Assembly (NCBI GenBank): GCA_964559865.1
Contig: CAZLJD010000021.1
Span: forward strand, 57,999-121,998
DNA length: 64,000 bases
Direction: 5' to 3'
DNA from: an uncultured Synergistota bacterium
GTDB lineage: Bacteria; Synergistota; JAGHAJ01
A program made the position numbers and the translations under genes. This document shows positions 23,114 through 47,688 of the stretch, piece after piece (the first letter of the stretch is position 1; each line of letters begins with the position of its first letter). The notes beneath the pieces were generated by a model. It saw nothing but the letters and a program-made list of their open reading frames with translations, did no database searches and was not told the origin of the DNA.

Positions 23114-23130
23114 GGAGAAGTCAAGAGGTC

Positions 23131-23700: not shown

Positions 23701-23712
23701 GGAGAAATATCC

Positions 23713-24612: not shown

Positions 24613-24637
24613 CTACAAGAGGATGGGAGGAGTTAAC

Positions 24638-25372
24638 ATGGCAATCAAAAACTGTTTCAGTGTCGTAGGCAATCACAACAGCGGAAAAACCACACTAATA
24701 GAAGAACTAATAAAAGAGCTAAAGACAAGAAACCTCTCCGTATCAACCATAAAACATGCCGTACACTTCAACTTCAATAGTAGCAACAAAGGTGATTCTG
24801 AAAGGTTGTTCCAAGCCGGCAGCAAAACATCTATAGCATTGTTCGAAGACGGAACCCAGCTGTACACATCTCCTACAAAGTTAAGAAGTGCACTCTCTTA
24901 CATCAACAGTGATATCCTAATACTAGAGGGGTTCAAAGGAGAAGCAGTTCCAAACATAGTGAGAGCCAAGAATACACAGGACGCCAAGAAGCTCATAAAT
25001 GAGCTTACAATTGCAATAGTTACAGACGAAGAAGGTAACTTGGAAGATACACCATCATTCAGGCCTCACCAGATAAGAGAGATAACAGAGGTGGCACTAA
25101 AACATTCGTTCCCACCACTCCCACTGTTAGACTGTGGGCACTGTAAGGGTGGAACATGTTTCAAAATGGCATCTATGATACTAAAGGGAGAAGGCTCTAT
25201 AAAGGATTGTGTGGTGCTTCCATCAAAAGTCAGACTAAAGGTAAACAATGTGAGCATCCCCCTAAACCCATTCGTAGAGCAGATCATTACATCTGTCGTC
25301 GGTTCATTGGTAGGCATACTAAAAGATACTACAAAGGAGATGAAAGAGATAGACCTCCACATAAAGCTGTAA
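24638..25372 (+). CDS. MobB-like P-loop protein (molybdopterin-guanine dinucleotide biosynthesis adaptor) with C-terminal Cys-containing extension
   Basis: ATG 24638 with GGGAGGAG SD 5 nt upstream. P-loop VVGNHNSGKTTLIEEL is typical of MobB. The C-terminal 80 aa (DCGHCKGGTCFKMASMILKGEG...) are of unknown family. Confidence 0.6.
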   Translation: MAIKNCFSVVGNHNSGKTTLIEELIKELKTRNLSVSTIKHAVHFNFNSSNKGDSERLFQAGSKTSIALFEDGTQLYTSPTKLRSALSYINSDILILEGFKGEAVPNIVRAKNTQDAKKLINELTIAIVTDEEGNLEDTPSFRPHQIREITEVALKHSFPPLPLLDCGHCKGGTCFKMASMILKGEGSIKDCVVLPSKVRLKVNNVSIPLNPFVEQIITSVVGSLVGILKDTTKEMKEIDLHIKL

Positions 25373-25521: not shown

Positions 25522-26259
25522 ATGAGGAGAGTTGTTCCCACAAGATTGAGAAAGGACAAGTACACATTCTCCGCAGAAGAATTGGAAGGTATGTTTTCCG
25601 TACCATCGAAGATGCCAAAATGGGAGCCGATGTACACAGAGCTCACACACAGAGATGGCAGTAAACACCAGGTACTAATCAGAGAGATCAAGAAAGAGGA
25701 GATTGACCCAATGCTTGCATTCATCAAAAGGTACACAGAAATCGACTACGACTACTACGACATAGTTTCTGCAAGGGTATATGCAGAGCTACTTGCCATC
25801 AAAAGAAACAGAATGAAAGACGAATACTTCTTCCTTGCACTGGAAAATGGAAGTCCTGTGGGAATAATAAACGGTAGGATCATGAACAAAGATATAAATA
25901 TAAGCCTCCACACAATGGTATTTAAGAGAAGGATTAACGCTGGTCCAATACTTTTCTACGCAAAGTGCTGGTATGCATTCGAAATCTGTGGTCAACAGGA
26001 ATTTTGGGCAACATTCGAAAGTTACAATGGCTGGAGACTTGCAGGTCTCGGCATGGGACTACCCACCTACAAGTGGCCAGATGTCCAACACGAGCTTGGT
26101 GGCGCTAAGGTTTACTATCTCTCACGTGAGATGTGGGAACTAACAATAAGAGACGAGTATCCAGAGCAGGTAGCAAGGGCAAAACTCATGCCTAATCCTC
26201 CAAAAGAGTTAATCGAAGCAAACGAAAAGCTGATAATTCCAGAAGAAATAGAGGTTTAA
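25522..26259 (+). CDS. Uncharacterized conserved 245-aa protein. Paralog of 40979-41716. Family not recognised.
   Basis: Clear coding periodicity, strong promoter and SD, and an intrinsic terminator downstream. High similarity to the second copy across the YYDIV.ARVYAE...NGR.MN.DINISLHTM.FKR...YAKC.Y.FE...QEFWAT.ESYNG...GLGM..P.Y.WPDVQHELGGA.VYY block. Confidence 0.7.
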   Translation: MRRVVPTRLRKDKYTFSAEELEGMFSVPSKMPKWEPMYTELTHRDGSKHQVLIREIKKEEIDPMLAFIKRYTEIDYDYYDIVSARVYAELLAIKRNRMKDEYFFLALENGSPVGIINGRIMNKDINISLHTMVFKRRINAGPILFYAKCWYAFEICGQQEFWATFESYNGWRLAGLGMGLPTYKWPDVQHELGGAKVYYLSREMWELTIRDEYPEQVARAKLMPNPPKELIEANEKLIIPEEIEV

Positions 26260-26274: not shown

Positions 26275-26310
26275 GGGGGAGAAGCTTAAGCTTCTCCCCC
26301 TTTTGTTTTT
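26275..26310 (+). terminator. Rho-independent terminator (possibly bidirectional) between convergent genes
   Basis: GGGGGAGAAGC-TTAA-GCTTCTCCCCC is an 11-bp perfect stem. It is followed by TTTTGTTTTT. Confidence 0.7.
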
Positions 26311-28660
26311 ACTCTACTTCTTTCTTTCCCTGTAGAATGGCAAGCGCTACCTTCTCCGCAGTAACAGGCATAGATTTAATTCTGATACCAAGCGCATCCT
26401 CAACAGCATTTGCAACCATAGGAGCAGCAGGTATCATTGTATGCTCAGATATTCCTCTTGCACCAAACGGGCCGTCAGGTTGCGGAACCTCCACTATTAT
26501 AGGTACTATTTCTTTAGGCACATCCATTGCGGTGGGTATCTTGTAGTCAGTAAAGTTAGGGTTCAATACCTTACCCTTATCATCAAATCTCATATCTTCG
26601 TAGAGCACAGTTGCCAAGCCCTGGAGCAGACCACCGTTTATCTGACCCTTCACAAGATCCGGATTTATCGCTTTACCCGCATCTACAGCTTCCACTGCCT
26701 TCAGAACTCTCATCTTGCCAGTTTCCTTGTCTATTTCAAGCACCACGGCACCAGCACCAACCGTGTAGTGCACATTTGGGTGTCCTCCCTGCGAAGTCTC
26801 CGGATCGTCTACCGTAGTCGTAAACTCCGGCATAAATATACCCCTACCAAGGATAGGTCCACCTCTATACGTACCATCATGCGTCTGAATACCGTTTATA
26901 ACGAAGTCCTTAAGCGGCAGTTGAAATTCTGGATCAGTCTTGCACTTTACCTTCTCGTCCTCAAGGTATAATGTCTCCTTCTCGAGGTGATATGCCTGAT
27001 GCACAACCTCAAATATCTGCTCACGGGCGTCTAAGGCTGCCCTCTTAACTGCATTACCGCAGGACCAAGTAACATGAGAAGCAACTGTCTGCCATTCGTA
27101 TGGATTCCTATCCGTATCAGGTAGCTCAACTCTTATCTTCTCAATGGGCACAGAGAGTATCTCGGCAGCGATCTGTGCCATAACTGTCATATACCCCTGC
27201 CCTATCTCCATACCAGACACTACGATGTTTATACTACCATCTTCGCTGAACTTCAGGAATGCAGCAGAAGATGTATTCGGAGGCATAGCAGGTGCCTTCC
27301 AGAATATGGCAAACCCCTTACCAATAACCTTGTTGGGATCCTTCGATTCCTCTTTCTTGCCCCACTCAACCTCCTTGGCTACCTTATCTATGGCTTCTAT
27401 CAAACCATTTGGATTCATAGGTGCACCATAGGCGACAGGGTCTCCCCTTCTAATGGCATTTTTTCTTCTAAACTCAACAGGGTCCATACCTATCATCTTC
27501 GCTACTCTCGTCATATGGGACTCAATAGCAAAATGGGTTTCAGAATATCCAAAACCTCTATATGGACCCGCCGCCGGCTTGTTTGTATATACGCATATAG
27601 AGTCTATCCAGACATTAGGTATCCTGTAAGGACCAGTTGCAGAGAGACCCGCTGCATTCACAACATTTGCCCCATACTCTGCATACGGACCAGCATCCCA
27701 GTAAAGCTCATTCTTCAAGGCAACGATCGTACCATCTTTCTTAACCCCTACTTTTATCTTTGAAACAAGTGCCTGTCTCATATATGTGTTGTAGAACTCC
27801 TGTGCCCTCGTCCACCTAACTTTCACCGGATGCCCCTTCACAACCGTAGCAAGAGCCACAGCAAGTATCTCCATCGAAACCCCAGCCTTACCCCCAAAAC
27901 CGCCACCAACATACGGGACCACAACTCTGATATCTTTGTGGCTTATACCCAATGGTGCTAACGCCTGTGCAAACAGATTTCTCTGAGTATGGGGTGACTG
28001 TGAGCTGGACCACACCGTAATCCTTCCAGAATAATCATAAAGGGCAACAGATATATGCGGTTCTATACAGCAATGAGCATACCTCGGCACCCTGTAAGTG
28101 TCCTCAAATACAAAGTCTGCCTCGGCAAACGCCTTTTCAACATCACCCTTTCTGACTTTTCTCCAATGTGCAATATTTGTGCCCGGCTTCGGGAAGTACC
28201 ACGGCACATGCCAGTAATTGGCAAGGTCAGGATGTATTATTGGAGCATTATCCTTTAATGCCTCCATCTGATCGAGCACATAAGGAAGCTCCTCATATTC
28301 TACCTTCACCAGTTTCGCTGCCTTCTTAGCAGCCTTTGGATTTCTCGCCAGGACAGCCGCCACCTGTTCACCGATAAACCTAACCCTATCCTGTGCAAAG
28401 ACATATCTATCGTGCATATACAAACCAAACCTATAAGGGAAATCCTTACCAGTAACTACCTTAACTACGCCCGGAACCTTCTCTGCTTCAGATGTGTCTA
28501 TGCTCTTTATCAAGGCATGCGGATAAGGACTCTCCACTATCTCTGCGTAAAGGAGATTAGGACCAAAATCCAAATCATCTACATACCTGGCAGCACCTGT
28601 AACCTTATCTCTTTCGTCAAGCCTCGTAAACGACTTACCCACATATTTAAGCTCTTCCAT
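26309..28660 (-). CDS. Molybdenum hydroxylase large (molybdopterin-binding) subunit, xanthine dehydrogenase/CoxL family
   Basis: 783 aa. Ald_Xan_dh_C-type N-terminus and the GGGFGGK signature (YVGGGFGGKAG). Sits in an M-S-L operon. Confidence 0.85.
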   Translation of the reverse strand: MEELKYVGKSFTRLDERDKVTGAARYVDDLDFGPNLLYAEIVESPYPHALIKSIDTSEAEKVPGVVKVVTGKDFPYRFGLYMHDRYVFAQDRVRFIGEQVAAVLARNPKAAKKAAKLVKVEYEELPYVLDQMEALKDNAPIIHPDLANYWHVPWYFPKPGTNIAHWRKVRKGDVEKAFAEADFVFEDTYRVPRYAHCCIEPHISVALYDYSGRITVWSSSQSPHTQRNLFAQALAPLGISHKDIRVVVPYVGGGFGGKAGVSMEILAVALATVVKGHPVKVRWTRAQEFYNTYMRQALVSKIKVGVKKDGTIVALKNELYWDAGPYAEYGANVVNAAGLSATGPYRIPNVWIDSICVYTNKPAAGPYRGFGYSETHFAIESHMTRVAKMIGMDPVEFRRKNAIRRGDPVAYGAPMNPNGLIEAIDKVAKEVEWGKKEESKDPNKVIGKGFAIFWKAPAMPPNTSSAAFLKFSEDGSINIVVSGMEIGQGYMTVMAQIAAEILSVPIEKIRVELPDTDRNPYEWQTVASHVTWSCGNAVKRAALDAREQIFEVVHQAYHLEKETLYLEDEKVKCKTDPEFQLPLKDFVINGIQTHDGTYRGGPILGRGIFMPEFTTTVDDPETSQGGHPNVHYTVGAGAVVLEIDKETGKMRVLKAVEAVDAGKAINPDLVKGQINGGLLQGLATVLYEDMRFDDKGKVLNPNFTDYKIPTAMDVPKEIVPIIVEVPQPDGPFGARGISEHTMIPAAPMVANAVEDALGIRIKSMPVTAEKVALAILQGKKEVE

Positions 28661-28672: not shown

Positions 28673-29134
28673 TTACTGTTTCTTGGATGCGTCGAGTATC
28701 GCTTCAATTATAGATACATATCCGGTACATCTACACAAATTACCTGCTATAGCCTCTTTTACTTCCTCCTCAGTAGGATGCGGATTCTTCTCCAATAGCT
28801 CTGTAGCGGTAAGTGTCATACCAGGGGCACAAAAACCACACTGGAATGAATTGTGTTCTATGAAAGACTCCTGCAACGGCGTAAGCCCATCCTTGGACAG
28901 CCCTTCAAGCGTCACTATCTCTGCTCCATCTACCTCTATAGCAAATATGAGACAACTCCTAACCGACTTTCCGTTGAGTAAAATAGTACACGCACCGCAG
29001 TCACCTCTACCGCAAGCGTACTTAGGTGTCTTCACACCCAATTTCCCCCTTAAGACTTCAAGGAGAATGTCATTGGGTTCTACCTCTACACTCCTCATTT
29101 CGCCATTCAGTTTGAATGTTATCTTCTTCTTCAT
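28673..29134 (-). CDS. Molybdenum hydroxylase small subunit, 2x[2Fe-2S] (CoxS/XdhC-ferredoxin type)
   Basis: 153 aa. Plant-type cluster CGRGDCGACT plus the second cluster CGFCAPGM...CRCTGY. Confidence 0.85.
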   Translation of the reverse strand: MKKKITFKLNGEMRSVEVEPNDILLEVLRGKLGVKTPKYACGRGDCGACTILLNGKSVRSCLIFAIEVDGAEIVTLEGLSKDGLTPLQESFIEHNSFQCGFCAPGMTLTATELLEKNPHPTEEEVKEAIAGNLCRCTGYVSIIEAILDASKKQ

Positions 29135-29146: not shown

Positions 29147-30037
29147 CTATATAAGCCTCGTTCCATATTCTGGTCCTTCTCCCTTAAGACGACTTACCGC
29201 AGCTCTCAAAGCTCTCTTTAACATTACTTTAGACATGTGCATTCTATACTCTCTTGTAGCTCTTATATCCGTTATAGGAGATATTTCATCAACCACAGCT
29301 GCCATAGCTTCCTCCATCACACTCTCAGTGAGCTCCTTTCCACTAAGTATTGCCTCTATCTTTCTGGCTCTCACAGGCTTAGGGCCAACTGCACAGAAAG
29401 CAACCCTATACTCATTTCCCTCAATAGCAAGTACACCAACTCCTACCTGTGCGAGATCCTCACCATCGTATCTACCAAGCTTTATGTATGCCCCACCATG
29501 CCTTTTTTCCAAGACAGAGAGAGATACACCAACAACCATCTCTCCCTTTTCCAGAGCCGTCTTCCTTGGGCCAAGAAACCAATCCAGAACAGGGATCTTT
29601 CTCTCACCAGATGGTCCCTTAACTACAACATTAGCCTCATACAACAAAACAGCTGGTCCACTATCCAAAGATGGTACTGCAGAACACATGTTACCCACCA
29701 ATGTAGCCCTATTTCTTATACCCATAGACGCCACACTCTTGGAAGCCTCCCAAAGCACAGGGAAATTTTTCCTAACTACTTCAGAGTCTATCAGCTCATT
29801 AAAGGTAACGAGGGCACCCACAAAGAGGTGCCCATCTTTAAATTCAAACCTTTTAAGTTCCTCTATTCCCTTTATATCAACCACTGCTTTGGGGGTTTCA
29901 AATCCGTCCTTAACACGGACCACAAGGTCTGTTCCACCTGCAAGTACTGCCGCATCCTTTCCGTAATCCGAAAGTAGCTTAACGACTTCGTCCACGCTTC
30001 CAGGCTTAAAATACTCAAACTCATGCACTATAGCCAT
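29147..30037 (-). CDS. Molybdenum hydroxylase FAD-binding medium subunit (CoxM/XdhB type)
   Basis: 296 aa. FAD_binding_5 with an AGGTDL motif. CO-dehydrogenase-flavoprotein C-terminal domain. Confidence 0.85.
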   Translation of the reverse strand: MAIVHEFEYFKPGSVDEVVKLLSDYGKDAAVLAGGTDLVVRVKDGFETPKAVVDIKGIEELKRFEFKDGHLFVGALVTFNELIDSEVVRKNFPVLWEASKSVASMGIRNRATLVGNMCSAVPSLDSGPAVLLYEANVVVKGPSGERKIPVLDWFLGPRKTALEKGEMVVGVSLSVLEKRHGGAYIKLGRYDGEDLAQVGVGVLAIEGNEYRVAFCAVGPKPVRARKIEAILSGKELTESVMEEAMAAVVDEISPITDIRATREYRMHMSKVMLKRALRAAVSRLKGEGPEYGTRLI

Positions 30038-30058: not shown

Positions 30059-31699
30059 TTATTCTGGCATCCTAAACGCAACAAACCTACCCCACATAGA
30101 AGTAGCCTCTATTGCTCTGATGAGGTAAGCAGCTATGTAATACCTCCCACTCCCAAGGTTTCTTATGTCATTTCCAAGGTTCTCAGCATGCACAAGATGC
30201 TGCGGGAAGAGTTTTATGTGCATTACCTGATAGAACTCATCTATAGGATACATCTCGTCCCAATCCTTTCCAAATGCCTCTATTAGCTTCCTGTTTGCCT
30301 CCTCAAAGGTCTTTGGATGCCATATTCTCATTATAGTATTCATAGGGTGATCTGCGCTAACAGCATCTACTCCTATCCACTTTATCTTCATATCGAGTGC
30401 CCACTGTGGAAAGTCTGGAGATGGACCTGGGTGCTTGACCATATATCTAAATTCATCAGATTCTGGGGTATTCCAACCGTATTTCCACCATCCCGTCTTT
30501 ATAATCAGGATGTCTCCTTCACGAATGTCTACTACCTTCTTTATCATTTCTGGAGTATAAACACTCGAATTACTCACCATATCAGATATATCTGCAATAA
30601 CCCCAGGGCCCACCCACTCTTCGAGTGGCACTTGACCTATAGGCCTACCCGCTGGATAGAAGTGTATTTCACCATCCATGTGCGTTGCAAGGTGAATACT
30701 CGCATTACAGATAGAGCCGTTTCTCCCCATCCCAAACTGCTGGCCACCAACCCTCTTGTGGAACCTTACGCTCAATGGTTCGTAGTTCAACCACTGTGGT
30801 GTCCTCACGCTAAACGGCAACGTCATGTCGTACTTCTCCATGTTGTCAAGGGCACTGTAAAACTCCTCCTCATCCATACCATCTGGAGGCTGATAGGCAA
30901 CTACCCTAACCCACGCTGCTTCCGTTTCCATAAACGGTATAGGATAACCTACTATCCACGCACGCTGGTTTTTGAGTTTATCTACATCCCCACCTATGCT
31001 CTCAATAAACACAAGGTGAGCATTAGGCACCTTTATGTGCATGAGTTCATAATACCAGTCAGGTGGGAACATTTCGTCCCAGCTCTTGCCGTATTTTTCT
31101 TTTAATTTTGCCTCAGCCTTCTCAAAGTGTAGCTTGTGCATATACCTTATAGGTGTATTCATGGGATGTTCTATACTTCCACAATCCACCCCTACCCACT
31201 TAAACTTCATCTTTATAGCCCAATCAAAGAAATCTGGAGATGGACCCGGGTGCTGAACAAGATACTTAAATTCACTGGAGTCTGGTTTCTCCCAAGAATA
31301 CTTGCTGTAACCCGTATATATAATAAGTATGTCACCCTCACGGACATCTGCTTTCTTCATTATCATTTCTGGAGTATAGAGACTATAGTCGGAAACCTCA
31401 TCAGATATGTCAACTATAACACCCCTCCCACCCAGCTCATCCAGAGGGATGTCGCTTATTGCCCTACCTGCAGAGTTAAAACTCGTCTCTCCAACGAGAT
31501 GTGTACCTGTAGTGTTGCTCCAATTTAGTATCTGACCGTTTGCACCCTGACCACCACCAAATGCACCAGTAACCCTCTTAAAGAAGTGGATACCAAGGGC
31601 TTTGTCACCCGGCCATGGGGGGGTATATATACTCAGAGGCTGGGTGATATCATACATCTTCGCTGAGCTTAACATCCTTATGAACTCTTCATTTCTCAT
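30059..31699 (-). CDS. Tandem-domain cyclase-family (KynB/isatin-hydrolase-like, PF04199) metal-dependent hydrolase
   Basis: 546 aa made of two homologous ~260-aa cyclase domains. Domain 2 keeps the HxxTHxDxxxH metal motif (IHLATHMDGEIHF). Domain 1 has it degenerate (TTGTHLVGETSF). Both are paralogous to the 254-aa cyclase at 42699-43463. Confidence 0.75.
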   Translation of the reverse strand: MRNEEFIRMLSSAKMYDITQPLSIYTPPWPGDKALGIHFFKRVTGAFGGGQGANGQILNWSNTTGTHLVGETSFNSAGRAISDIPLDELGGRGVIVDISDEVSDYSLYTPEMIMKKADVREGDILIIYTGYSKYSWEKPDSSEFKYLVQHPGPSPDFFDWAIKMKFKWVGVDCGSIEHPMNTPIRYMHKLHFEKAEAKLKEKYGKSWDEMFPPDWYYELMHIKVPNAHLVFIESIGGDVDKLKNQRAWIVGYPIPFMETEAAWVRVVAYQPPDGMDEEEFYSALDNMEKYDMTLPFSVRTPQWLNYEPLSVRFHKRVGGQQFGMGRNGSICNASIHLATHMDGEIHFYPAGRPIGQVPLEEWVGPGVIADISDMVSNSSVYTPEMIKKVVDIREGDILIIKTGWWKYGWNTPESDEFRYMVKHPGPSPDFPQWALDMKIKWIGVDAVSADHPMNTIMRIWHPKTFEEANRKLIEAFGKDWDEMYPIDEFYQVMHIKLFPQHLVHAENLGNDIRNLGSGRYYIAAYLIRAIEATSMWGRFVAFRMPE

Positions 31700-31711: not shown

Positions 31712-32959
31712 TTACTCAATATTGTACTTCTCTGCAAAAGCCTCAAGGGCCTTCTCAAAAACCTCCATAGGAGCATCCACCAAACCCGCACCTACTTGTC
31801 CAACTCCCGGCTTCTTGTGTGCAACACCGGTGTCGATAAACGGAGGTATTCCCTTTTCCACTACCTTTACTATATCTATACCTGTTGGTGTGCCTCTAAA
31901 GTCCAGGAAAGGTATCTGGTAAACATTGTTCTCCCCAATAGTTATCTCATACATAGCAAGGGTCTTTTCGACGGATTCCTTGACGGTACCACCCACAAAC
32001 TGTATTATAGCCGGTGCCGCTGCTATTGCAAAACCTCCAAGACCAGCTGTCTCCATTATTGCACTGTCACCAATGTCAGGGTTAACATCCTCCTTTGTAA
32101 ATCCAGGGAACAACAGGACATCTGGTACAGGTGCCGGCGCCGTAAACCACTGATCACCAAGTCCCGAAACCTGAATACCAAAATCTGTCCCATTCCTAGC
32201 CATAACTGTTACCATAGTACTGCCTTCTATATTCTTTGCAGGATCGAGACTCACCTTCGCACTCGTCATAGCAAAACCAAGAAATGTATGTATATTCTCC
32301 TCCATAAATCTCATAACCTCATTGGTTTCATGGTGGTCCTTCATCGTCTCTGCCATAGCACCAGCAATCTTAGCAAAGAGCACATAAGATGCTGCTCTAC
32401 TCCTATTGTGTAACTCATCTCCCATATGCAACGCCTGTGCTATTATATTCTTGAGGTCAAGTTTTCCTATTTTTCTTATAGCCCTCTGCCACACCGGGAA
32501 CATGACATTTTCAAGCCACTTCAATCTCTCAATGACATCGGGTGAATAGGCACCCATTCTCAAGACCTTACCTATACCTTCGTTAAGCGTCTGGTAAGCT
32601 CTATTGCCGTGAGCCTCATTTTCGGTGATTATTACTGGCATCGAAGCCGATACTATGCCAGCCATTGGCCCTACTGTATTGTGATGATGACAAGGAGAAA
32701 ACTCTATCTCTCCAGATGCAGCCAGCTCCTCTGCCTCTTCGGGGGTCTTTGCAAGTCCTTCATACATCAGAGCACCTATAACCGCTCCTCTCTGTGGCCC
32801 ACACATTCTATCCCATGTAATAGGAGGTCCTGCGTGCAGAATGAGATTTTTCTTCATCCCGGGGATAACATCTATAGCCTTCCCCATATCCACCCACATC
32901 GGCTTAGCCTCTAACAAGATCTTCAATGCCTTCTCATTCGCCTTCTCGATATCAACCAT
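31712..32959 (-). CDS. ylbE: DUF1116 protein, YlbE homolog (putative oxamate-carbamoyltransferase subunit)
   Basis: 415 aa. Blocks LHAGPPITWDRMCGPQRGAVIGA, PCHHHNTVGPMAGIVSASMPV and DGNRAYQTLNEGIGKVLRMGAY match, as far as I recall, the conserved blocks of E. coli YlbE. Confidence 0.75.
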   Translation of the reverse strand: MVDIEKANEKALKILLEAKPMWVDMGKAIDVIPGMKKNLILHAGPPITWDRMCGPQRGAVIGALMYEGLAKTPEEAEELAASGEIEFSPCHHHNTVGPMAGIVSASMPVIITENEAHGNRAYQTLNEGIGKVLRMGAYSPDVIERLKWLENVMFPVWQRAIRKIGKLDLKNIIAQALHMGDELHNRSRAASYVLFAKIAGAMAETMKDHHETNEVMRFMEENIHTFLGFAMTSAKVSLDPAKNIEGSTMVTVMARNGTDFGIQVSGLGDQWFTAPAPVPDVLLFPGFTKEDVNPDIGDSAIMETAGLGGFAIAAAPAIIQFVGGTVKESVEKTLAMYEITIGENNVYQIPFLDFRGTPTGIDIVKVVEKGIPPFIDTGVAHKKPGVGQVGAGLVDAPMEVFEKALEAFAEKYNIE

Positions 32960-33019: not shown

Positions 33020-33404
33020 AATTATTTCACCCCTCAGTTACCACCTCCTTTCAAGCTACAATATACCATAGCAGTTGAATTTTTTCAAGTTTTCCAATAT
33101 ACAAATATTTACAAAGTTGCAGGCTTTCAAAACTTACCGTTTGTGTAATCTTCTAAATTTATAAGACAAAATCAATGACCTAAGCCTGCAGAATGTCAGT
33201 AAAATACTACAAAAACTCAATCTTCTCTTTCTTACTCATAAACTTGACAAAAGCAGCAGTTGTGATATACTTTCGAGCAGTTAATGAAGTGTTACACTTC
33301 TTCAAATTGGGGGGTGGTAGCGAAAGAAAGCTATCAAGTGTTTGAAGCATACTGAAAAGTGATCTACGGTTTAGGTAATCACTTTGAGGAGGGGAGGTTA
33401 CAGT

Positions 33405-34940
33405 ATGGCAGAGCAAACAACTATGCAAAAGGGTTGGGTTATATACCCAATAGGAAGCAGGCCTAAAATGGCATTGTCCTTCTTCCTTGGATTACAGCAC
33501 TATCTTACCATGTTCGGCGCAACCGTTAGTATACCATTGATACTCAGCGGTGCCATGAAGATGCCACCTCAGGAAACAGCACTCTTAATTTCCACCATAT
33601 TTCTGGCAAGCGGTATAGCAACACTCTTACAGCAGTACATAGGTAACAGACTACCTATAGTTCAAGGTGGGAGCTTTTCGTTTCTTGGCCCGGCATTCGC
33701 CATCATTGCATTGGTAGGTCAGCACGGCGGAAACTGGCAAAACATGATACAAACCGTATCCACAGCAATACTGTTTGGCTCATTCTTTGAAATTATACTT
33801 GGTTATAGTGGTTTGATGGGACAGATCAAAAAGGTCATAGGTCCAATAACGATAGCACCAACAATTACAATGATAGGACTCTCTCTGTTTGGGGTAGGTG
33901 CCCCATTCATGGCAGGAAACTGGACAATATCGGTCATCACCTTAATAGCACTAATACTCTACTCGCAGGTCTTCGCAAGAAAGTCGAGGGTATTTCTATT
34001 GTTCCCAGTTCTTCTGGCTATACTTACGGGTTGGATACTCTCTCTGATAGGAACGCTTACAGGCATAATTCCTCCTGGAAACCCTGCAAACCTTGCAAAA
34101 GGACTCCAACTAATACACAACTCTCCTTGGTTCTGGATAAGGCCAATCATACCATTCAAGTGGGGATTTCCACCCATTGACTCTGTAGTAACAGCAGGGG
34201 CAATAGGTACATTGGCAGGATACATAGCATCAATGGTGGAATCCATCGGAGACTATCACTCCTGCGCAAGGATAGCTGAAGGGCCTGTACCCACAGCAAG
34301 GATGATATCAAAAGGACTTGGGGCTGAGGGTGTTGGCTGTCTCGTAGCAGGTATTCTGCAGACCGGCAATGGAACCACATCTTACACCGAGAATATCGGT
34401 GCAATTGGTATCACGAGGGTAGCATCCAGGCGAGTGATAAAAGCAGGTGCAACTATAGCCATTGTAATACCATTCTTTGCAAAGTTTGGTGCGATCCTGG
34501 CCACACTACCGCAACCTGTCGTGGGCGCAATGTATGTGGGACTATTCGGCTTGATTGCAGCAGTCGGGTTATCCAACCTTCAGTTCGTCAACCTGAACAA
34601 CTCGAGGAATCTGTTTATACTTGGTCTGGCACTCTTCAGCGGTCTCACATTCCCAGCATACTTCAACGCCCACCCAATACATTGGGGTGCTCCCGGGACA
34701 CTAACAGGGACTCTCGGAGATATAGCTCAGACTATACTAACAACCGGCATGGCAGTATCAGCCTTTATCGCAATGGCTCTGGACAACTGGCTGCCTGGTG
34801 CAACACGAGAGGAAAGAGGCCTCGCAGTTTGGGAGAGAGAAGCAACAGAAGAGGCATGGATCGAAGCAGAGAAAGAGTGGGCAAAGATGAAAGTTGGGGA
34901 AGAGAGAAAATTAGAAGGATTCGAAGGCTCACAAAGTTAG
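33405..34940 (+). CDS. NCS2-family nucleobase:cation symporter (xanthine/uracil/urate permease type)
   Basis: 511 aa from ATG 33405 (GGAGGGGAGG SD). About 12 TM helices. NCS2-like N-terminus LGLQHYLTMFGATVSIPL. Confidence 0.8.
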   Translation: MAEQTTMQKGWVIYPIGSRPKMALSFFLGLQHYLTMFGATVSIPLILSGAMKMPPQETALLISTIFLASGIATLLQQYIGNRLPIVQGGSFSFLGPAFAIIALVGQHGGNWQNMIQTVSTAILFGSFFEIILGYSGLMGQIKKVIGPITIAPTITMIGLSLFGVGAPFMAGNWTISVITLIALILYSQVFARKSRVFLLFPVLLAILTGWILSLIGTLTGIIPPGNPANLAKGLQLIHNSPWFWIRPIIPFKWGFPPIDSVVTAGAIGTLAGYIASMVESIGDYHSCARIAEGPVPTARMISKGLGAEGVGCLVAGILQTGNGTTSYTENIGAIGITRVASRRVIKAGATIAIVIPFFAKFGAILATLPQPVVGAMYVGLFGLIAAVGLSNLQFVNLNNSRNLFILGLALFSGLTFPAYFNAHPIHWGAPGTLTGTLGDIAQTILTTGMAVSAFIAMALDNWLPGATREERGLAVWEREATEEAWIEAEKEWAKMKVGEERKLEGFEGSQS

Positions 34941-35414: not shown

Positions 35415-35873
35415 ATGGATATAAACCAGCTAATTCTTGGAGGCATTCTAATAGGAGGAATGCTATTCTTTTACTGGTTTAAACAAAATGACAGAAAAAA
35501 AATTCTCTCCATGTTTCCCGCAAGAGAGATTGTGGCATACACACACGGTGTAACCTGTTTTGGTTTAGCATCTGAGCCTGGAGGCATAAAAGAGTCTTCA
35601 GGGAGCATACTCTTGTTGAAGGATAGAATATTCTACAAAGATAGGTTTGGTAAAAGGGAGATATTCATACCAAAAGAAAACCTTTTATCCATCGTGGTCA
35701 CAGACAATCACAAAGGTGAACCAACATACCAGAAATGCTTAGCCTTTTATTTCAAGGACGATTATGATAGAATAGAAAGGGTTGCCTTTATCATTCCACA
35801 TCCAAAACAGTGGGTAGAGATTGTAAAACGCACCTTCCAGAAGGAGATCCCGATAAAAGAGGAACTGTGGTGA
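35415..35873 (+). CDS. Hypothetical protein with N-terminal TM anchor
   Basis: 152 aa. No recognisable family. Confidence 0.4.
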   Translation: MDINQLILGGILIGGMLFFYWFKQNDRKKILSMFPAREIVAYTHGVTCFGLASEPGGIKESSGSILLLKDRIFYKDRFGKREIFIPKENLLSIVVTDNHKGEPTYQKCLAFYFKDDYDRIERVAFIIPHPKQWVEIVKRTFQKEIPIKEELW

Positions 35874-35879
35874 AGGAGA

Positions 35880-36242
35880 GTGAGAAAAGTGCATATCACT
35901 ATTATAGTTTACCATCACCCCTACTCGTACGAAGACATGGACACAGCGATAAATATCATAAAAGCACTAAGAGAAGAAAACCATAAGTGCACACTCATGC
36001 TGTTCATGGACGCCGTTACAGCCACAAATAGGGAGATAAAACCACCAAAATACGACAGAAACATAGCAGAAAAGCTACAAAACCTTATAGATAAAGATGT
36101 AAAAGTCATAGTCTGCGGCTCATGTACGCTCTACAGGGGAGTCAGTAAAGCAGAACTTTTGGAGAATGTATCCCTGGGCGGACTTTCAACGCTGGGAGAG
36201 GTCATCAAACACAGCGATAGAGTGATAAACATAGGATGGTGA
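35880..36242 (+). CDS. DsrE/TusD-like sulfur-relay protein
   Basis: 120 aa DsrE/DsrF-like fold (HITIIVYHHPYSYEDMDTAINIIKA...VIVCGSC). First gene of a DsrEFH-like trio. Confidence 0.65.
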   Translation: MRKVHITIIVYHHPYSYEDMDTAINIIKALREENHKCTLMLFMDAVTATNREIKPPKYDRNIAEKLQNLIDKDVKVIVCGSCTLYRGVSKAELLENVSLGGLSTLGEVIKHSDRVINIGW

Positions 36243-36243
36243 G

Positions 36244-36618
36244 GTGAGGAGATTGGAAGAAAAAACCATAACCATAGTATCCAGACACAGCCCTATGGGA
36301 ACATCTACCGTGCACGAGGCATTTAGAGCCAGTATTGGGTGCAGTAGCGAAAACAAGCACATAAACTTAGTATTAGCAGAAGATAGCGTCTTTGCTCTGT
36401 TAAAACCAATAAAGGGAAAAAACCCCATAGATATACCCTCTCTGGAAAGGTACTTCTTGAGTCTTCAGGAATTCGGGATAAATCTCCTGATCCATAAACC
36501 ATCCTTCAAAGAGAGAATCAACCCAGAAAAAGACGAGCTTCTCCCATACGGAAAGTTTATCTCCGACAAAGAGCTAACCCAACTGATAAGAAAAAGCGAC
36601 ACAATCCTTTTATTCTAA
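36244..36618 (+). CDS. DsrF/TusC-like protein
   Basis: 124 aa. Middle gene of the DsrEFH-like trio. Confidence 0.55.
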   Translation: MRRLEEKTITIVSRHSPMGTSTVHEAFRASIGCSSENKHINLVLAEDSVFALLKPIKGKNPIDIPSLERYFLSLQEFGINLLIHKPSFKERINPEKDELLPYGKFISDKELTQLIRKSDTILLF

Positions 36619-36633
36619 CGGGAGGGAAAGACA

Positions 36634-36933: not shown

Positions 36934-36952
36934 AAGCAGCAGGAGGATAGCC

Positions 36953-39881: not shown

Positions 39882-39885
39882 TCAG

Positions 39886-41739: not shown

Positions 41740-42687
41740 CTATTTAGCACGCACACGCGTGCCCACCTTGCCTTCCAAAGCATCAAGTGCGTTATCAAGA
41801 GAGCTTATTATAGCCACATCTCCCCCACCTTTAACAAATCTTAATGCTGCCTTAACCTTTGGCCCCATGCTACCAGCCTTAAAGTGTCCCTCTGCCTGAT
41901 ACCTCTCCAACTCTTCAACGGTAACTTCACCGATAGCCTTCTCCTGTGGGGTTCTAAAGTTTATCATTGCATGTGGAACATCTGTAAGTATCAAGAATAT
42001 ATCAGCCTTCACATCCTGCGCAAGCCTTTCGCCAGCAAGGTCCTTATCGATGACCGCTTCAACCCCCTTAAGCGTCCCATCCTCAAGTTTAATAACAGGT
42101 ATGCCACCTCCACCAGATGCAATGACAATTGCCCCTTTCTCTACGAGGGCAGAAACAACCTCCTTTTCCACTATCCCTATAGGGTCAGGAGAAGGCACAA
42201 CCTTCCTCCATCCCCTCCCACTATCTTCTATCCATGTCTCATTTTTCTCAGCCGCCCTCTTCTTCGCCTCCTCCTCGGTATAGAAGGGACCTATAGGTTT
42301 TGTGGGGTTCTGAAATGCAGGATCATCTTTGCTAACAAGCACCTGAGTAATCACCGTAGCTACTTCTCTACGGATGCCCCTCTTAATAAACTCGTTTCTC
42401 AAGCTTTGCTGAATCATATAACCTATCAAACCCTGACTTTCTGCACCACATATATCAAGAGGCATCGCAGGAACGCTATCAGAACCCTTCTCGTTCTGAA
42501 TCAATATTACACCCACCTGGGGTCCATTCCCGTGCGTTATAACAACCTCATAGCCTGCCTCAACCATTCTTACTATCTGGCTGCATGTTCTTCTCACATT
42601 CTCAAATTGCTCCTCAGCAGTACCTTTCTGACCCGGCTGAAGAATAGCATTTCCTCCGAGAGCAACAACAACCCTTTTACCCATCAT
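41740..42687 (-). CDS. arcC: Carbamate kinase
   Basis: 315 aa. [11 protein letters not shown]...[11 protein letters not shown] is the amino-acid-kinase family carbamate kinase signature. Confidence 0.85.
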
Positions 42688-42698: not shown

Positions 42699-43463
42699 TT
42701 ATTCATCTTCAAATGCAACAACTCTACAAAAAGCAGACTCCCCACCTTGAAACTTCCAAGGAAACACGCCTATAGTAGTTCTCTTGTTCAAAAACTTGTC
42801 TATCTCTCCCCCTATATTCTCAACATGCAATATGCCTTTGGGGAAGAGATAAGTATGCATAAGCTGATACATTTCTGGCGGGAATATCTTATCCAACGGC
42901 TTACCCAGTTTCCTTTCAGCTTCCGCAGCATACTCCGGCTTGAACTTCCTGAGTATGGTATTCATTGGGTGATCTGCAGAACCACAATCTACTCCTATAA
43001 GCTTTATTTTCATATCCAGCACCCACTCTGCAAACTCCTTATGTGGTCCAGGATGCTTATAAAAATACTTGTTCTCGTCTGCCTCTGGCTGATCAAACGC
43101 ATAGTGGTGAAATCCAGTGTGTATTATCAAAATATCACCAGGCTTAATCTCGACTTTTTTCGTAAAGTGTTCTGGTTTGTAGATCTCATACTCTCCAACT
43201 TCGTCGCTTATGTCTACAACAACACCCGGTCCAAACAGCTCATCCATAGTAAGACTTGCTATGTCCCTTCCACCCGTCTTGAAATGTCTCTGCCCATCAA
43301 GGTGCGTTCCCACATGATTACTGGTTGTGATCAGTTGACCATTAGCACCATGAAAACTCCACCTCTTAAAATACTTCACCTGCAATGGCTCATAAGAGGG
43401 CCATGGAGGTGTCTCAACTCCTGTGGGCTGGGACAAATCATAAGCTTTCAATGTCATAACCAA
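42699..43463 (-). CDS. Cyclase-family (KynB-like) metal-dependent hydrolase, single domain
   Basis: 254 aa with an intact [12 protein letters not shown] motif. Paralogous to both halves of the 546-aa tandem protein. Confidence 0.75.
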
Positions 43464-43671: not shown

Positions 43672-45225
43672 TTACTTCCCCTTCACTATCTCTATAGCTG
43701 TCCTGACTGCCTGAACATTACTCGGCATAACAACGACCCCGACCTCTTCTAACTTCTTTTGCTGTTCATCAAGGTTCTGCGGATCATCTTTTGTCCCACA
43801 TATAGACGCAACAACGGACAAATATCTACCATCCTTTTCCGCTAATTCCTTTGCCTCTTTAATATAAGGTGCCAGCGCTCCTGCCATATCCTCATTGGAA
43901 CCGTAACCAATAACAATATCAAGGAGTATAACTGCTACTTCAGGGTCTTTCGCCTCCTCCAATATCCTTTTCTGTCTTGTCCTTGGATCTATCATTGGGT
44001 GTGGTTGTCCCTGGGTAAACTCATCTTCACCAAGGTCTATAACGGTGTGCTTTTCACTCTTATATATGTCCTTCAGCTCGTACCCTTTGTGCAACGGGGC
44101 ATTAGAGTAGGTAGGTTCACCAAGTTCCTTTTCTATTAAATACATAGCCTCATCACAGAGCGTACCCCCAGTATAAAGCCCTCTAATATACTTCTGACCA
44201 TCAGCAAGCCTTTCTCTCTCCTTAACTGCCACTCGTTTAATCTGCTCCTCTCCTGGGATCTTTATGTCAGGCTCCCTACCGTCAGACAACGCTACTGCCA
44301 CAAGGGCCGTCTCTTCCAATGTCGTTGGAGCATAAAAGCCGTACTCTTTAACCATTTCAGGATCTCCATTTATAAAATCGACCACCACGGGTTTACTACC
44401 CTCTTTCAATACATCCAAAACCTTCTTTGCAACCTCTGGCGCAGGGGGTTTGGATATCACTACGATAACTTTCGTAGCAGGGTCTTCCTGTAATGCTTTT
44501 ATTCCTGCTATAACCATTTTCCCCCCCACTTCTTTCTTCAGGTCTCTACCACCAGTACCTATAGCCTGCGAGATACCTTTCCCGTTTTTAGCTATAATTG
44601 TGGAAACCTCCTGAAGCCCGGTACCAGAAGCTGCTACGATACCTATGTCACCTCGAGGGACCTCGTTGGCAAATGCGAGAGGAGCACCATTTATTATAGC
44701 CGTTCCACAATCCGGACCCATCATCAAAAGCCCCTTTTCATTAGCAAGGGTTTTAAGCTCTATCTCATCTTCTATTGGCACATTATCGCTAAACATAAAC
44801 ACATGCTTTCCTGCCATAAGCGCCTTTCTCGCTTCGTAAGCAGCATACTCACCTGCCACAGATATCATCACAAGGTTTGCATCAGGCATGTACTCAAAAG
44901 CACCTTCAAGGCTCACAGGAGAGTACTCCTCATCGCCTCCGGTTTCTTTCTTTTTCTTAAGAAGTTCATCTACCTTCTGGTAAGCCTCTTGAAGAATACT
45001 ATCGTCTTCTGCCTCCATTGCAATCACAAGATCATTCGCAGTCGCACCATCCAGTTTGCTGTCGTAAAGTCCAACCACGGAGAGAGACTCCTTATTGTGG
45101 TCCGTTGCCATAGCCACAACCACTTCTTTGATACCCTTCATCTCAGATATTTCCCTACTAACCAACATCAACGTAACCGAGTCATAATAAGAATTTTTCA
45201 CAACCTCAACCCTCTTAACTGACAC
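43672..45225 (-). CDS. fdrA: FdrA-like protein (succinyl-CoA-synthetase-alpha/CoA-binding fold), putative oxamate-carbamoyltransferase subunit
   Basis: 517 aa. N-terminus VKNSYYDSVTLMLVSREISE and central GPDCGTAIINGAPLAFAN...GIVAASGTG blocks match the FdrA family. Confidence 0.75.
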   Translation of the reverse strand: MSVKRVEVVKNSYYDSVTLMLVSREISEMKGIKEVVVAMATDHNKESLSVVGLYDSKLDGATANDLVIAMEAEDDSILQEAYQKVDELLKKKKETGGDEEYSPVSLEGAFEYMPDANLVMISVAGEYAAYEARKALMAGKHVFMFSDNVPIEDEIELKTLANEKGLLMMGPDCGTAIINGAPLAFANEVPRGDIGIVAASGTGLQEVSTIIAKNGKGISQAIGTGGRDLKKEVGGKMVIAGIKALQEDPATKVIVVISKPPAPEVAKKVLDVLKEGSKPVVVDFINGDPEMVKEYGFYAPTTLEETALVAVALSDGREPDIKIPGEEQIKRVAVKERERLADGQKYIRGLYTGGTLCDEAMYLIEKELGEPTYSNAPLHKGYELKDIYKSEKHTVIDLGEDEFTQGQPHPMIDPRTRQKRILEEAKDPEVAVILLDIVIGYGSNEDMAGALAPYIKEAKELAEKDGRYLSVVASICGTKDDPQNLDEQQKKLEEVGVVVMPSNVQAVRTAIEIVKGK

Positions 45226-46084
45226 TAACGATCCCTCCTTTTATAAGAATCTCCAAAGCCATAGCCACTCCGGTTAACCAATCACTTCCAGATGTGGCAC
45301 CAACACCAACCACATCAGACATAGCCTTATAAAACACACTTCCACCATCCACAAAGGTACTCCAAAACCTCTGATACACTTCAGGGACTTTGCCATGATA
45401 TAGATTGAATAGCATGTGTGCGCTAACCGCCGTAGTAGCATAAAACAACTCATCTTTTACATCGCCCAACCACGGTGCATCTCCAAGGAAGACACAATAC
45501 GCAGAAGAAAACCCACCAATCCAATCGTCAAGGGACGGAGTAAGTCCCACCCCTCTGCCCAACATTTTTCTAACATAAAAAGAGCCTCTCCTACCCGCCG
45601 CTACTTCACTCACAAAACATCTCAAGAGTTTGGCAACATCTTCGCAGTCCTGAAAAAATTTCCCGTCAAACAACAAGTGAGATAACTCCCCTTTTCCCTC
45701 TCTCCTAAGAAAATCCAAGACATTCATCAATCTATCAGATATAAGCCGCACATCGAATTTGCACACAGGTAACTTTGCATCCCACAGCTCTACATCCGCA
45801 GACAGAGGAATCCTAACCCTACTTCCCGACCAAACCAGAATTCCATCCTTATCTCTTATAGCAACCCTTCCACGCAAAAAAATATCTTCAAATGGCAGTA
45901 TCCTCCTTACCCTCACGCCAAACGGCACCATATACATACTACTCAACAGCAGGGACACGAACACACCATCCTCAAACACCAAATTCACTACCCTCCTAAA
46001 TACAGAGTGAACCTCCCCTTTTACGGCATCCCCATTCAGACCGTGTAAATCAGCATCTATCTTCTCAGCCAGTATGTTTATCAT
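45215..46084 (-). CDS. ylbF: DUF2877 protein, YlbF homolog
   Basis: 289 aa. GRGVGLTPSLDDW and GATSGSDWLTG blocks correspond to the conserved G.G.GLTPSGDD and GHTSG.D blocks of the YlbF family. Confidence 0.7.
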   Translation of the reverse strand: MINILAEKIDADLHGLNGDAVKGEVHSVFRRVVNLVFEDGVFVSLLLSSMYMVPFGVRVRRILPFEDIFLRGRVAIRDKDGILVWSGSRVRIPLSADVELWDAKLPVCKFDVRLISDRLMNVLDFLRREGKGELSHLLFDGKFFQDCEDVAKLLRCFVSEVAAGRRGSFYVRKMLGRGVGLTPSLDDWIGGFSSAYCVFLGDAPWLGDVKDELFYATTAVSAHMLFNLYHGKVPEVYQRFWSTFVDGGSVFYKAMSDVVGVGATSGSDWLTGVAMALEILIKGGIVSVS

Positions 46085-47688
46085 CAGTATCCCAAGACAT
46101 TGTGTATCTTTATTGCTAACTCTAACTTCAACACATCTTCCGCATTGTCGAGGTCTATACCCAATATGCTTTCTGCCTTTCTGAGCCTGTAAACAACCGT
46201 GTTGTAGTGCAGAAACATCTTCTTCGAAACGGTAGTAACATTTCTGTTACACTCAAAGAACATGTTCAGTGTATTTATTATCTCTTTACGCCTCTGCGTT
46301 GTACCGTAACTAAGCAACCTACCTAAAACTCTATCCCTGAAGCTCTTTAGTTCATCAAACGAAGCAACCTTGTAAAGTAAACCATAGACACCTACATCGT
46401 CCCTAAAAATTATCTTACTCCTATCCAGCTTGCTTCCAATACAAGCAGTCACATACGCATCCTGATAGCTCTTCCACGCATACCTTAACCCATCTACCGG
46501 CTCCCCAACGGCAACGATAGCACTCTTGTCCACAAACGAGCGTTCAAGATTGCTGATCAAGAACTCTAACATAGGAGAAAGCATCTTCCTAAGGTCTACG
46601 CCCTTATCCTTTTCATTTCCTACATCGACAAGCATCACAAAGAACTCCCCTATTACCGAGAAAAGCGCCTTCCTCTTAAACCTATTAGCCACATCCTTTC
46701 CTATGGAGATAAGCCTGTTCCTGACCCTTAGGATAAACTCTGCATCGTTACCAAGATGCTTATCTTTGAGCAAGAAAACCATAACGGCATACTTATCGTG
46801 CAACGAAAGGCCAAACACTCCAGCCTTCTCCAGCGCAAGAGATACTTTTTCACTATCCCCAGATAGGAGGTCACTCATAAATTCAGATTCGTACTTCAGT
46901 TCCACCTCGCTAATAGCCTGCTCTTTTACAAGCTCCAACGCTATCATCATAGAAGCTATCTCCGCTACTCTAACATCAAGAGGCGTTAACTCCCCGTTCT
47001 TACTGTAAAGGCATATATTACCATAGACATTATCACCAGACGCTATTGGAAAGACATTATACCCTTTCTTCCAGAAGATATCTTCCGTCGGCTCAGAAGG
47101 TAGCCCACTCGGTATCCAATCCTTGGAGAAGAAATATCTTCCATATACCAGATCCCTAACACATATAGGACAACCAACTATCTCAGCAGTTGCATCCATA
47201 ATATCCACTATACTCCCACCAGACAGTACAATGTTCATCAGCTTTTTGTGTGCTTCATCGCTCTTCACAAGTATTGCCATCTGTTTGTTGACTATCATCT
47301 TCATAACTGGTGACATTATGTCAGAGAAAGACAGGTCAAAAGGAATCTCCAAAAGCGGTATGTTGTACCTATCTGCAAACTCTACCATCTCTGGCGGTAT
47401 CTCTGTTAGATATCTCTTAGGTTTTATTCCAATAGCTGCTGCCTTCTTCTCAGCGAGCATGGGAATCAAAGCACACTGCGCCTCTTTATCATCTTTTATG
47501 GAGTATCCAGTCGTAAGCAAGAAATCTCCCGGCCTTATCCAATTGAGGATGTCAGGAACTTCCATAACATTCACATTAGTAACCACATTGGACAAGCCAC
47601 CAAGCCCAGCTACAACCTTTATGTCCTTAAACACATCAAGCTCCAACATATCCTTCACTGTTATTCCTAACTCATTCCTCATTTTCAC
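46084..47688 (-). CDS. PucR-family transcriptional regulator (purine catabolism regulator-like)
   Basis: 534 aa. PucR N-terminal domain. C-terminal HTH_30 (TVSKKMFLHYNTVVYRLRKAESILGIDL). Confidence 0.75.
   Translation of the reverse strand: MKMRNELGITVKDMLELDVFKDIKVVAGLGGLSNVVTNVNVMEVPDILNWIRPGDFLLTTGYSIKDDKEAQCALIPMLAEKKAAAIGIKPKRYLTEIPPEMVEFADRYNIPLLEIPFDLSFSDIMSPVMKMIVNKQMAILVKSDEAHKKLMNIVLSGGSIVDIMDATAEIVGCPICVRDLVYGRYFFSKDWIPSGLPSEPTEDIFWKKGYNVFPIASGDNVYGNICLYSKNGELTPLDVRVAEIASMMIALELVKEQAISEVELKYESEFMSDLLSGDSEKVSLALEKAGVFGLSLHDKYAVMVFLLKDKHLGNDAEFILRVRNRLISIGKDVANRFKRKALFSVIGEFFVMLVDVGNEKDKGVDLRKMLSPMLEFLISNLERSFVDKSAIVAVGEPVDGLRYAWKSYQDAYVTACIGSKLDRSKIIFRDDVGVYGLLYKVASFDELKSFRDRVLGRLLSYGTTQRRKEIINTLNMFFECNRNVTTVSKKMFLHYNTVVYRLRKAESILGIDLDNAEDVLKLELAIKIHNVLGY

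Follow-up and report, generated by a model that had tools for sequence, protein, structure and literature searches.

A Tandem Cyclase-Family Protein with One Intact and One Degenerate Active Site, Encoded in a Probable Purine-Type Operon of an Uncultured Synergistota Bacterium

A Tandem Cyclase Gene with Two Unequal Modules

We analyzed a 64,000-nucleotide stretch of DNA (the window) from an uncultured Synergistota bacterium (assembly GCA_964559865.1, contig CAZLJD010000021.1, positions 57,999 to 121,998) and concentrated on a minus-strand gene at positions 30059..31699, which codes for a 546-amino-acid (aa) protein of the cyclase family (PF04199), referred to below as the tandem cyclase. Its assignment draws on the open reading frame (ORF), which starts with ATG, on Pfam, on an AlphaFold2 model and on Foldseek. 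An AGGAGG Shine-Dalgarno sequence is located 8 nt upstream of the start and overlaps the stop codon of the preceding allG gene. A first-pass annotation, made from the sequence alone, had described the product as a duplicated KynB-like cyclase fold, and this description was borne out. The protein matched PF04199 (Putative cyclase) in two stretches with 196.3 bits (gathering cut-off 23.1), and residues 1-274 aligned end to end with residues 275-546 by BLASTP at 50% identity over 273 columns with a single gap (E = 2e-93). Since this value is far beyond chance, the internal duplication is certain.

The N-terminal module (residues 1-274; 30878..31699, minus strand), delimited by the identity of the two halves and by residue mapping, is degenerate and presumed to be non-catalytic. 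The C-terminal module (residues 275-546; 30059..30877, minus strand) is, by motif conservation and mapping of KynB ligands, the intact and predicted catalytic copy. Only about five residues link the two. When compared with the family motif HxG[T/A]HxDxPxH, the C module contains all of its His/His/Asp/His residues (HLATHMDGEIH, residues 336-346; 30662..30694), whereas the corresponding segment of the N module, TTGTHLVGETS (residues 63-73; 31481..31513), differs. Both segments, on the minus strand, translate as the first-pass annotation had quoted them, and the C-terminal copy does keep the HxxTHxDxxxH-type motif assigned to it. The annotation had also stated that the N-terminal motif lost its first His and its Asp; these residues are indeed replaced (T63 and V69), but the extent of the loss was slightly understated, since the general-base His is gone as well (S73).

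In KynB of Bacillus anthracis, the Zn ion of site I is held by H50, H54 and D56 and that of site II by D56, H161 and E173, while H60 acts as the general base and holds the bridging water (PMC4243253). We mapped these residues through a phmmer alignment of the tandem cyclase to 4CO9, whose SEQRES numbering equals that of the paper +2. The site I ligands H50 and H54 correspond to H336 and H340 in the C module and to T63 and H67 in the N module. D56, the ligand that bridges sites I and II, corresponds to D342 and V69, and the general base H60 to H346 and S73, respectively. At site II, H161 and E173 are matched by H494 and E506 in the C module and by H221 and E233 in the N module. As can be seen, all six KynB active-site residues are present in the C module, which by this mapping contains a complete KynB-type binuclear site. 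The N module is without two of the three site I ligands, the bridging Asp among them, and without the base, and keeps only H67, H221 and E233. KynB and the mononuclear Mn isatin hydrolases have metal site I in common (PMC6117287); since the N module keeps one of the three ligands of this site, canonical catalysis is not expected there.

Ligands lost at these positions could have been replaced by others. We compared the halves at the 29 positions where each is at least 95% conserved and yet the two differ, and found no His, Asp or Cys gained in the N half; the only polar changes to ligand-type residues at these positions were N62, E177 (Asp to Glu) and E196. A complete N-module metal site rebuilt elsewhere, which the first-pass annotation had named as the outcome that would speak against it, was thus not found among these positions. 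Its proposal, one catalytic and one pseudo-enzyme domain, is supported by the residue counts, six of six in the C half and three of six in the N half. The altered metal site that it named as the other option may still exist in the form of a residual His/His/Glu site. Judged by its residues, the N module is presumably a pseudoenzyme domain that has lost residues essential in the parent family, has kept the fold and is under purifying selection.

Predicted Fold and Arrangement of the Modules

The AlphaFold2 model of the tandem cyclase, built from 36 sequences, is a compact two-module structure with a mean predicted local distance difference test (pLDDT) score of 86.5 and a predicted template modelling (pTM) score of 0.89. 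Low-confidence stretches are confined to two Gly-rich loops, 42-53 and 317-323; the linker is predicted with high confidence, and the pLDDT of the N module is mostly above 85. Structure prediction of both domains had been proposed as a check, and in the model each half superposes on KynB or isatin hydrolase with a template modelling (TM) score of up to 0.86. A Foldseek search of the PDB retrieved 34 significant matches, all of them PF04199 proteins (KynB, isatin hydrolases, a cyclase-phosphotriesterase and uncharacterised hydrolases) and all of them chains of about 190-310 residues with a single module; their target TM scores were 0.53-0.86 (0.69-0.86 outside 5IBZ), and for 4COG, E was 2.5e-14 and the target TM score was 0.85. 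No solved structure of a tandem PF04199 protein was among these matches.

Proteins with the PF04199 fold are obligate dimers: each subunit contributes a β-hairpin to the wall of its partner's substrate pocket (PMC4243253, PMC6117287). Since the partner completes each pocket in such a dimer, retention of a dead copy finds an explanation. The short linker and the high pTM score of the model indicate that the two modules would be held in a fixed mutual arrangement.

Conservation and Age of the Degenerate Copy

Residue conservation was computed on 120 homologs that are at least 69% identical to the tandem cyclase (120 listed of 999 matches). In this set, the N-module motif S-N-x-x-G-T-H-L-V-G-E (S61, N62 and G65-E71) is invariant, and position 73 is either Ala (114 of 120) or Ser. 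The C-module motif H-x-x-x-H-M-D-G-E-x-H, which includes H336, H340, D342 and H346, is likewise invariant, as are H494 and E506; H504 is present in 119 of the 120. Mean pairwise identity among the homologs is 82% in the N half against 84% in the C half, and 32% and 40% of the sites, respectively, are invariant. At the level of residue conservation, the N pocket, which appears to be dead, is shown to be frozen by selection rather than decaying, and its degenerate state to be old and fixed.

In a neighbour-joining tree, the N halves and the C halves form two clades with the same inner branching, in which Caldisericota-type sequences come first and the others follow. The tree was rooted at the midpoint and has no bootstrap values, and it serves as a basis for this congruence and for one grouping described below, not for the order of events. 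The congruence of the two subtrees indicates that there was one duplication before the family radiated.

A search of 1.84 billion cluster representatives at 50% identity retrieved only one further full-length representative of the family (P0121, 65% identical), together with two unrelated tandem PF04199 proteins, P0167 and P0254. All single-domain relatives that we examined retain the canonical His/His/Asp/His residues. One of them, P0122, has an intact motif, is 52% identical to the C half and groups with the C halves in the tree; on another contig, it fills the slot between allG and the gene for the subunit that binds flavin adenine dinucleotide (FAD). Its presence in the same slot agrees with an origin from a homodimeric ancestor whose gene was duplicated in situ at a later time.

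Genes around the Tandem Cyclase

The tandem cyclase gene is the second gene of a minus-strand operon, in which allG is followed by the tandem cyclase and then by the FAD, [2Fe-2S] and molybdopterin subunits of a molybdenum hydroxylase of the xanthine dehydrogenase (XDH) family. The allG gene (31712..32959; DUF1116/YlbE-type; PF06545, E = 1.4e-93) lies directly upstream in the same operon, with a 12-nt gap. The gene for the FAD subunit (29147..30037; PF00941 and PF03450; below the XdhB equivalog cut-offs) begins 21 nt downstream and is followed by those for the [2Fe-2S] subunit (28673..29134; PF01799 and PF00111) and the molybdopterin subunit (26309..28660; PF02738, PF20256 and PF01315). All hydroxylase subunits score below equivalog cut-offs; the molybdopterin subunit, for instance, reached 555 bits with the XdhA model, which has a cut-off of 780. 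A xanthine/uracil permease of the NCS2 type (33384..34940, plus strand; PF00860, E = 1.8e-75), also found in related loci, is transcribed divergently.

A second minus-strand run of genes is located 11.0 kb away. It starts with a PucR-type regulator of purine catabolism (46084..47688; PF07905 and PF13556), an AllH (DUF2877)-like protein (45215..46084; PF11392, E = 1.4e-13) and an FdrA/AllF-like protein (43672..45225; NF004760, 565 bits, cut-off 433; PF00549 and PF02629). Next come a single-domain cyclase paralog of 254 aa, whose motif is intact in the alignment (42699..43463; PF04199, E = 1.3e-35), and carbamate kinase (41740..42687; TIGR00746, 460 bits, cut-off 358), then a 245-aa protein, a MoCF_biosynth-domain protein and XdhC. 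The intact single-domain paralog that had been reported 11 kb away beside carbamate kinase is therefore present, directly upstream of the kinase gene.

The 245-aa protein after carbamate kinase (40979-41716, minus strand) belongs to no Pfam or NCBIfam family and has only a weak GNAT match (E = 0.045). Its relatives are located directly upstream of fdrA in many Chloroflexota loci (L018, L023, L032, L040 and others), and it seems to be a conserved component of FdrA/AllG clusters that has so far gone unrecognised. We considered whether it is a cryptic AllH and rejected this, as the BLASTP E value was 0.36 and no Pfam or NCBIfam family was matched. A second 245-aa protein without a family (25522-26259, plus strand) adjoins the molybdenum hydroxylase/cyclase operon; relatives with 64-70% identity lie beside this operon in Caldisericota and in one metagenome-assembled genome (MAG) of Spirochaetaceae (L004, L006-L009 and L064).

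Other genes in the window were also noted. Genes for maturation of molybdenum enzymes (CoxD-like AAA, CoxE-like VWA, MobB, XdhC and MoCF_biosynth-domain proteins) flank the operon at 22235-25372 (plus strand) and 39111-40914 (minus strand), and are consistent with an actively used molybdenum hydroxylase. The plus-strand segment 16844-22168 codes for a PreT/PreA-like pair (Pyr_redox_2; DHO_dh with two 4Fe-4S domains), a DUF6282 protein, a radical-SAM protein and a YaaH-family transporter, and looks like a reductive module for pyrimidine or purine rings beside the cyclase/XDH operon. Small DsrE/DsrH-like proteins, a ferredoxin and an aldehyde:ferredoxin oxidoreductase are encoded at 35415-39122 (plus strand), between the permease and XdhC, and a second oxidoreductase of this type at 14822-16825. 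A glycyl-radical enzyme of 838 aa (PFL-like and Gly_radical domains; 11643-14159, plus strand) is encoded after a PAS histidine kinase and a response regulator of the LuxR type.

Occurrence and Gene Order in Other Genomes

The nearest relatives of the tandem cyclase come from Caldisericota MAGs (73-79% identity), followed by those of very many Anaerolineae and other Chloroflexota (68-73%), including the cultured Anaerolinea thermophila and Bellilinea caldifistulae. The family is tight, with about 70% identity between its Caldisericota and its Chloroflexota members. The gene is also carried by one Spirochaetaceae MAG. A scan with one genome per species gave 258 matching stretches, 80 of which were kept as synteny loci, each with a full-length match.

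The conserved gene order is (allF/fdrA), allG, the tandem cyclase and an XDH-type molybdenum hydroxylase, accompanied by nucleobase transporters. AllG is present in 73 of the 80 loci at a median offset of -1308 nt. Among informative loci, it is the immediate upstream neighbour of the tandem cyclase in 58 of 70, and a molybdenum subunit follows downstream in 49 of 50; FdrA precedes AllG in 41 of 55. Recurrent neighbours include a CN-hydrolase between fdrA and allG, an NmrA-like reductase, DinB, CoxG and a family-III CoA-transferase, and the recurrent transporters are NCS2 permeases and ABC transporters of the PnrA/Bmp type. In many Chloroflexota loci, the gap between the cyclase and the FAD subunit contains an inserted NmrA-like gene, to which a DinB-like gene may be added; AllH, which we considered as a candidate for the gene in these gaps, was rejected on this ground.

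The molybdenum subunit adjacent to the cyclase in most Chloroflexota is only 28-31% identical to that of the window. A set of molybdenum genes with 49-52% identity is found elsewhere in the same loci (L026, L061, L065 and L078) or directly adjacent to the cyclase (L012, L016 and L027). Across the related loci L012-L082, the cyclase stays 70% identical and AllG 56%. One locus (L024, JAIWHF010000044.1; coverage 0.31) was binned as 'Methanosarcinales archaeon' and contains the allG-tandem cyclase-XDH block at 71% identity, as in Anaerolineales; it is more likely to be a contaminant of the bin than a true archaeal occurrence.

Discussion

Taken as a whole, the data are best explained if the tandem cyclase is a covalently fused pseudo-homodimer with the metal-dependent amidohydrolase fold of KynB and isatin hydrolase and a role in a purine-type operon, and we consider this reading probable. 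By this account, a homodimeric enzyme would have been duplicated internally, with only one of its two sites remaining catalytic. The N module would be kept since it completes and shapes the pocket of the C module, and its frozen pocket may also serve non-catalytic binding. Dimers that were fused and then lost one site are well known from evolution, and so the architecture alone is only moderately surprising. Interest is added by the frozen state of the dead pocket, by conservation that is extreme even between phyla and by the close linkage to AllG in a so far unstudied pathway of abundant anaerobes. The protein would offer a clean natural example of a homodimeric metalloenzyme that has become a fused asymmetric pseudo-dimer with its inactive site frozen.

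As to the role, a purine regulator, nucleobase transporters, a molybdenum hydroxylase and the logic of AllFGH and carbamate kinase together point to a hydrolase. The most economical reading of this genomic context is that the tandem cyclase would be the amide- or ring-opening hydrolase of a nucleobase-type anaerobic catabolic module. The fused enzyme would hydrolyse a bond of the amide, ureide or formamide type in an N-heterocycle derived from purine, so that a ureido intermediate is probably produced or processed by it. A transcarbamylase of the AllF/AllG(/AllH) type would then phosphorolyse this intermediate to carbamoyl phosphate, which carbamate kinase would convert to ATP.

One can go further and propose, as a speculation to which we ourselves give little credence, that the (allF)-allG-tandem cyclase-molybdenum hydroxylase operon might be the core of an undescribed anaerobic degradation of purines or other N-heterocycles in Chloroflexota (Anaerolineae), Caldisericota and some Spirochaetota. 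In analogy to isatin hydrolase, the pseudo-dimer would open a ring once it has been hydroxylated, such as the five-membered cyclic urea of an 8-oxopurine, and the dead pocket would hand the ureido product to an AllF/AllG-type transcarbamylase that harvests carbamoyl phosphate for ATP. In the literature searched, we found no description of a tandem PF04199 protein, of this operon or of a cyclase in anaerobic purine pathways. The tandem cyclase is constantly partnered by AllG/FdrA and a molybdenum hydroxylase, which points towards a nucleobase-fermentation module, so far unstudied, in abundant, poorly cultured anaerobes (Anaerolineae and Caldisericota), and the substrate range of AllFGH-type transcarbamylases could widen beyond oxalurate.

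Several points weigh against the fused pseudo-dimer with a hydrolytic role in a purine-type pathway. H67, H221 and E233 are kept and the N pocket is strongly constrained, which exceeds what a pure scaffold needs. A dimer-like packing, swapped hairpins and an empty N pocket are deduced rather than seen. AllH is unrelated to the cyclase (hhalign), which weakens the proposed role. The molybdenum hydroxylase adjacent to the cyclase falls into two paralog groups in different lineages and is not orthologous across them, its identity to the molybdenum subunit of the window being 28-31% in some and 50-52% in others. Finally, neither carbamate kinase nor AllH was found within 10 kb in Chloroflexota loci, so the link to ATP-yielding transcarbamylation rests on the window and on the adjacency of AllF and AllG.

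Other explanations were weighed against the same observations. The N module could be a docking or regulatory module, whose frozen pocket binds either a ligand (the substrate, the product or an effector) or another protein, for example AllG or the molybdenum hydroxylase, and so channels an unstable intermediate or regulates the C site. The almost constant adjacency of allG and the cyclase, with a 12-nt gap and overlapping signals, would fit such a function, as would the invariant residues specific to the N half (N62, W60, Q56 and E177); by analogy with W59/W61 of isatin hydrolase, the invariant R326 on the hairpin of the C half would point into the N pocket. The proposal is, however, purely inferential, the single-domain P0122 occupies the same slot without a specialised module, and AllH, the third subunit of AllFGH, is unrelated to cyclases. 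We therefore regard a docking function as rather unlikely.

It is also conceivable that the protein is bifunctional, with a live N module in which H67, H221 and E233 would form a mononuclear site resembling a 2-His-1-carboxylate site and catalyse a second reaction of the same pathway. H67 and E233 occur in all 120 homologs and H221 in 119; E177, the equivalent of the KynB Asp that forms a hydrogen bond with H161, is invariant too, and conservation of the N pocket equals that of the live pocket. The metal site of this fold is, moreover, plastic, being mono- or binuclear and occupied by Mn or Zn (PMC6117287). Against this stands the fact that the site shared by KynB and isatin hydrolase is down to one of three ligands, with a hydrophobic Val in place of the bridging Asp, Ser or Ala in place of the general-base His and no His, Asp or Cys gained in the N half. 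On balance, a second activity is improbable.

An ordinary kynurenine formamidase (arylformamidase) of tryptophan catabolism is disfavoured to the point of being very hard to believe. This is how the Joint Genome Institute (JGI) names homologs, and KynB provides the closest solved structures. However, the score of the tandem cyclase with the TIGR03035 arylformamidase model is 62.5 bits against a cut-off of 223.05, identity to the solved KynB chains is only 15-19% (Foldseek), neither tryptophan dioxygenase nor kynureninase was found among the window ORFs scanned, and the genes that regularly accompany it code for AllG/FdrA and a molybdenum hydroxylase. Judged by model score and context, it is very unlikely to be a true kynurenine formamidase.

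The last alternative, two adjacent single-domain genes fused by a sequencing or assembly error, has practically no probability: single-domain relatives exist, but the distribution refutes it, since the identical 546-aa product occurs on independent assemblies, all 120 listed homologs (of 999 matches) are about 545-564 aa long, 80 of the 80 kept loci (of 258 stretches) have full-length matches and the inter-module linker is predicted with high confidence.

Database names deserve a comment here. Metagenome entries of this kind are labelled 'kynurenine formamidase' or 'cyclase family protein', and the former label is almost certainly wrong for the tandem clade. JGI labels dozens of tandem-clade members 'kynurenine formamidase' or 'arylformamidase'; judged by the NCBIfam cut-off and by context, these labels are almost certainly over-annotation.

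Comparison with Known Systems

KynB (PDB 4CO9, 4COB and 4COG; EC 3.5.1.9) has the same fold as each half of the tandem cyclase (Foldseek TM score 0.82-0.86 per half), and the C module has the same six residues, that is, the binuclear Zn site and the base. Its site II element is of the Glu type (I/L-x-E-like, 'HAEN'), rather than the Gln/Ala of isatin hydrolase. KynB is, however, a 23-kDa homodimer, whereas the tandem cyclase consists of two fused modules with one degenerate site, carries about 60 extra residues of helical insertion per module and has the motif HxDGExH in place of HxDxPxH. The genomic context also differs, being of the purine type here and of the tryptophan type for KynB.

Isatin hydrolases (Labrenzia aggregata and Ralstonia; PDB 4J0N, 4M8D, 5NNA and 5NMP) have the same fold at 15-17% identity. 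They are hairpin-swapped dimers in which the partner lines the pocket, but, unlike the tandem cyclase, they are homodimers with two live sites. Isatin hydrolase opens a five-membered lactam fused to a six-membered ring, which provides a chemical analogy to the opening of an oxidised purine. The enzyme is a mononuclear Mn enzyme with a GLQC/GLAS signature, whereas both modules of the tandem cyclase have Glu at this position (E233 and E506), and for this reason the latter is not an isatin hydrolase.

AllFGH has been shown experimentally to be an oxamic transcarbamylase that phosphorolyses a ureido compound to carbamoyl phosphate, which carbamate kinase (AllK in E. coli) turns into ATP (PMC11326118). 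As in E. coli, genes for FdrA/AllF-, AllG- and AllH-like proteins and for carbamate kinase are found in the window, around its two cyclase genes. The E. coli operon is, however, without a cyclase-family gene, and allG is followed there by allH, whereas in the window it is followed by the tandem cyclase. We considered the tandem cyclase as a divergent AllH and rejected this, as the hhalign probability against the AllH of the window was 0.2%. Judged by sequence comparison, the tandem cyclase is a neighbour of the AllFGH system and not a member of it. Since no allB, allC or allD genes were seen, oxalurate derived from allantoin is an unlikely substrate.

The anaerobic pathway for uric acid and 2,8-dioxopurine (XdhD-YgfM, YgfK, SsnA, HyuA, YgeW, YqeA, YgeY and YgeX) follows the same logic, with a molybdenum hydroxylase, ring-opening amidohydrolases, a carbamoyltransferase and carbamate kinase for ATP. 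It differs in that hydrolysis is carried out by SsnA and HyuA of the amidohydrolase superfamily and transcarbamylation by YgeW, which has the ATCase/OTCase fold; descriptions of the pathway mention neither a cyclase-family protein nor FdrA.

The two other tandem PF04199 proteins, P0167 and P0254, also consist of two modules but are only 26-29% identical to the tandem cyclase. In P0167 (L086, 8001-9575), the bridging Asp of the N-module motif is replaced by Asn and the C module is intact, and the gene lies in a LysR/cupin/SDR/TRAP-transporter context; in P0254, both motifs are intact. The low identity and the unrelated context of P0167 point to independent fusions. Asymmetric decay of the N-terminal copy may be a recurrent outcome of fusing a PF04199 dimer.

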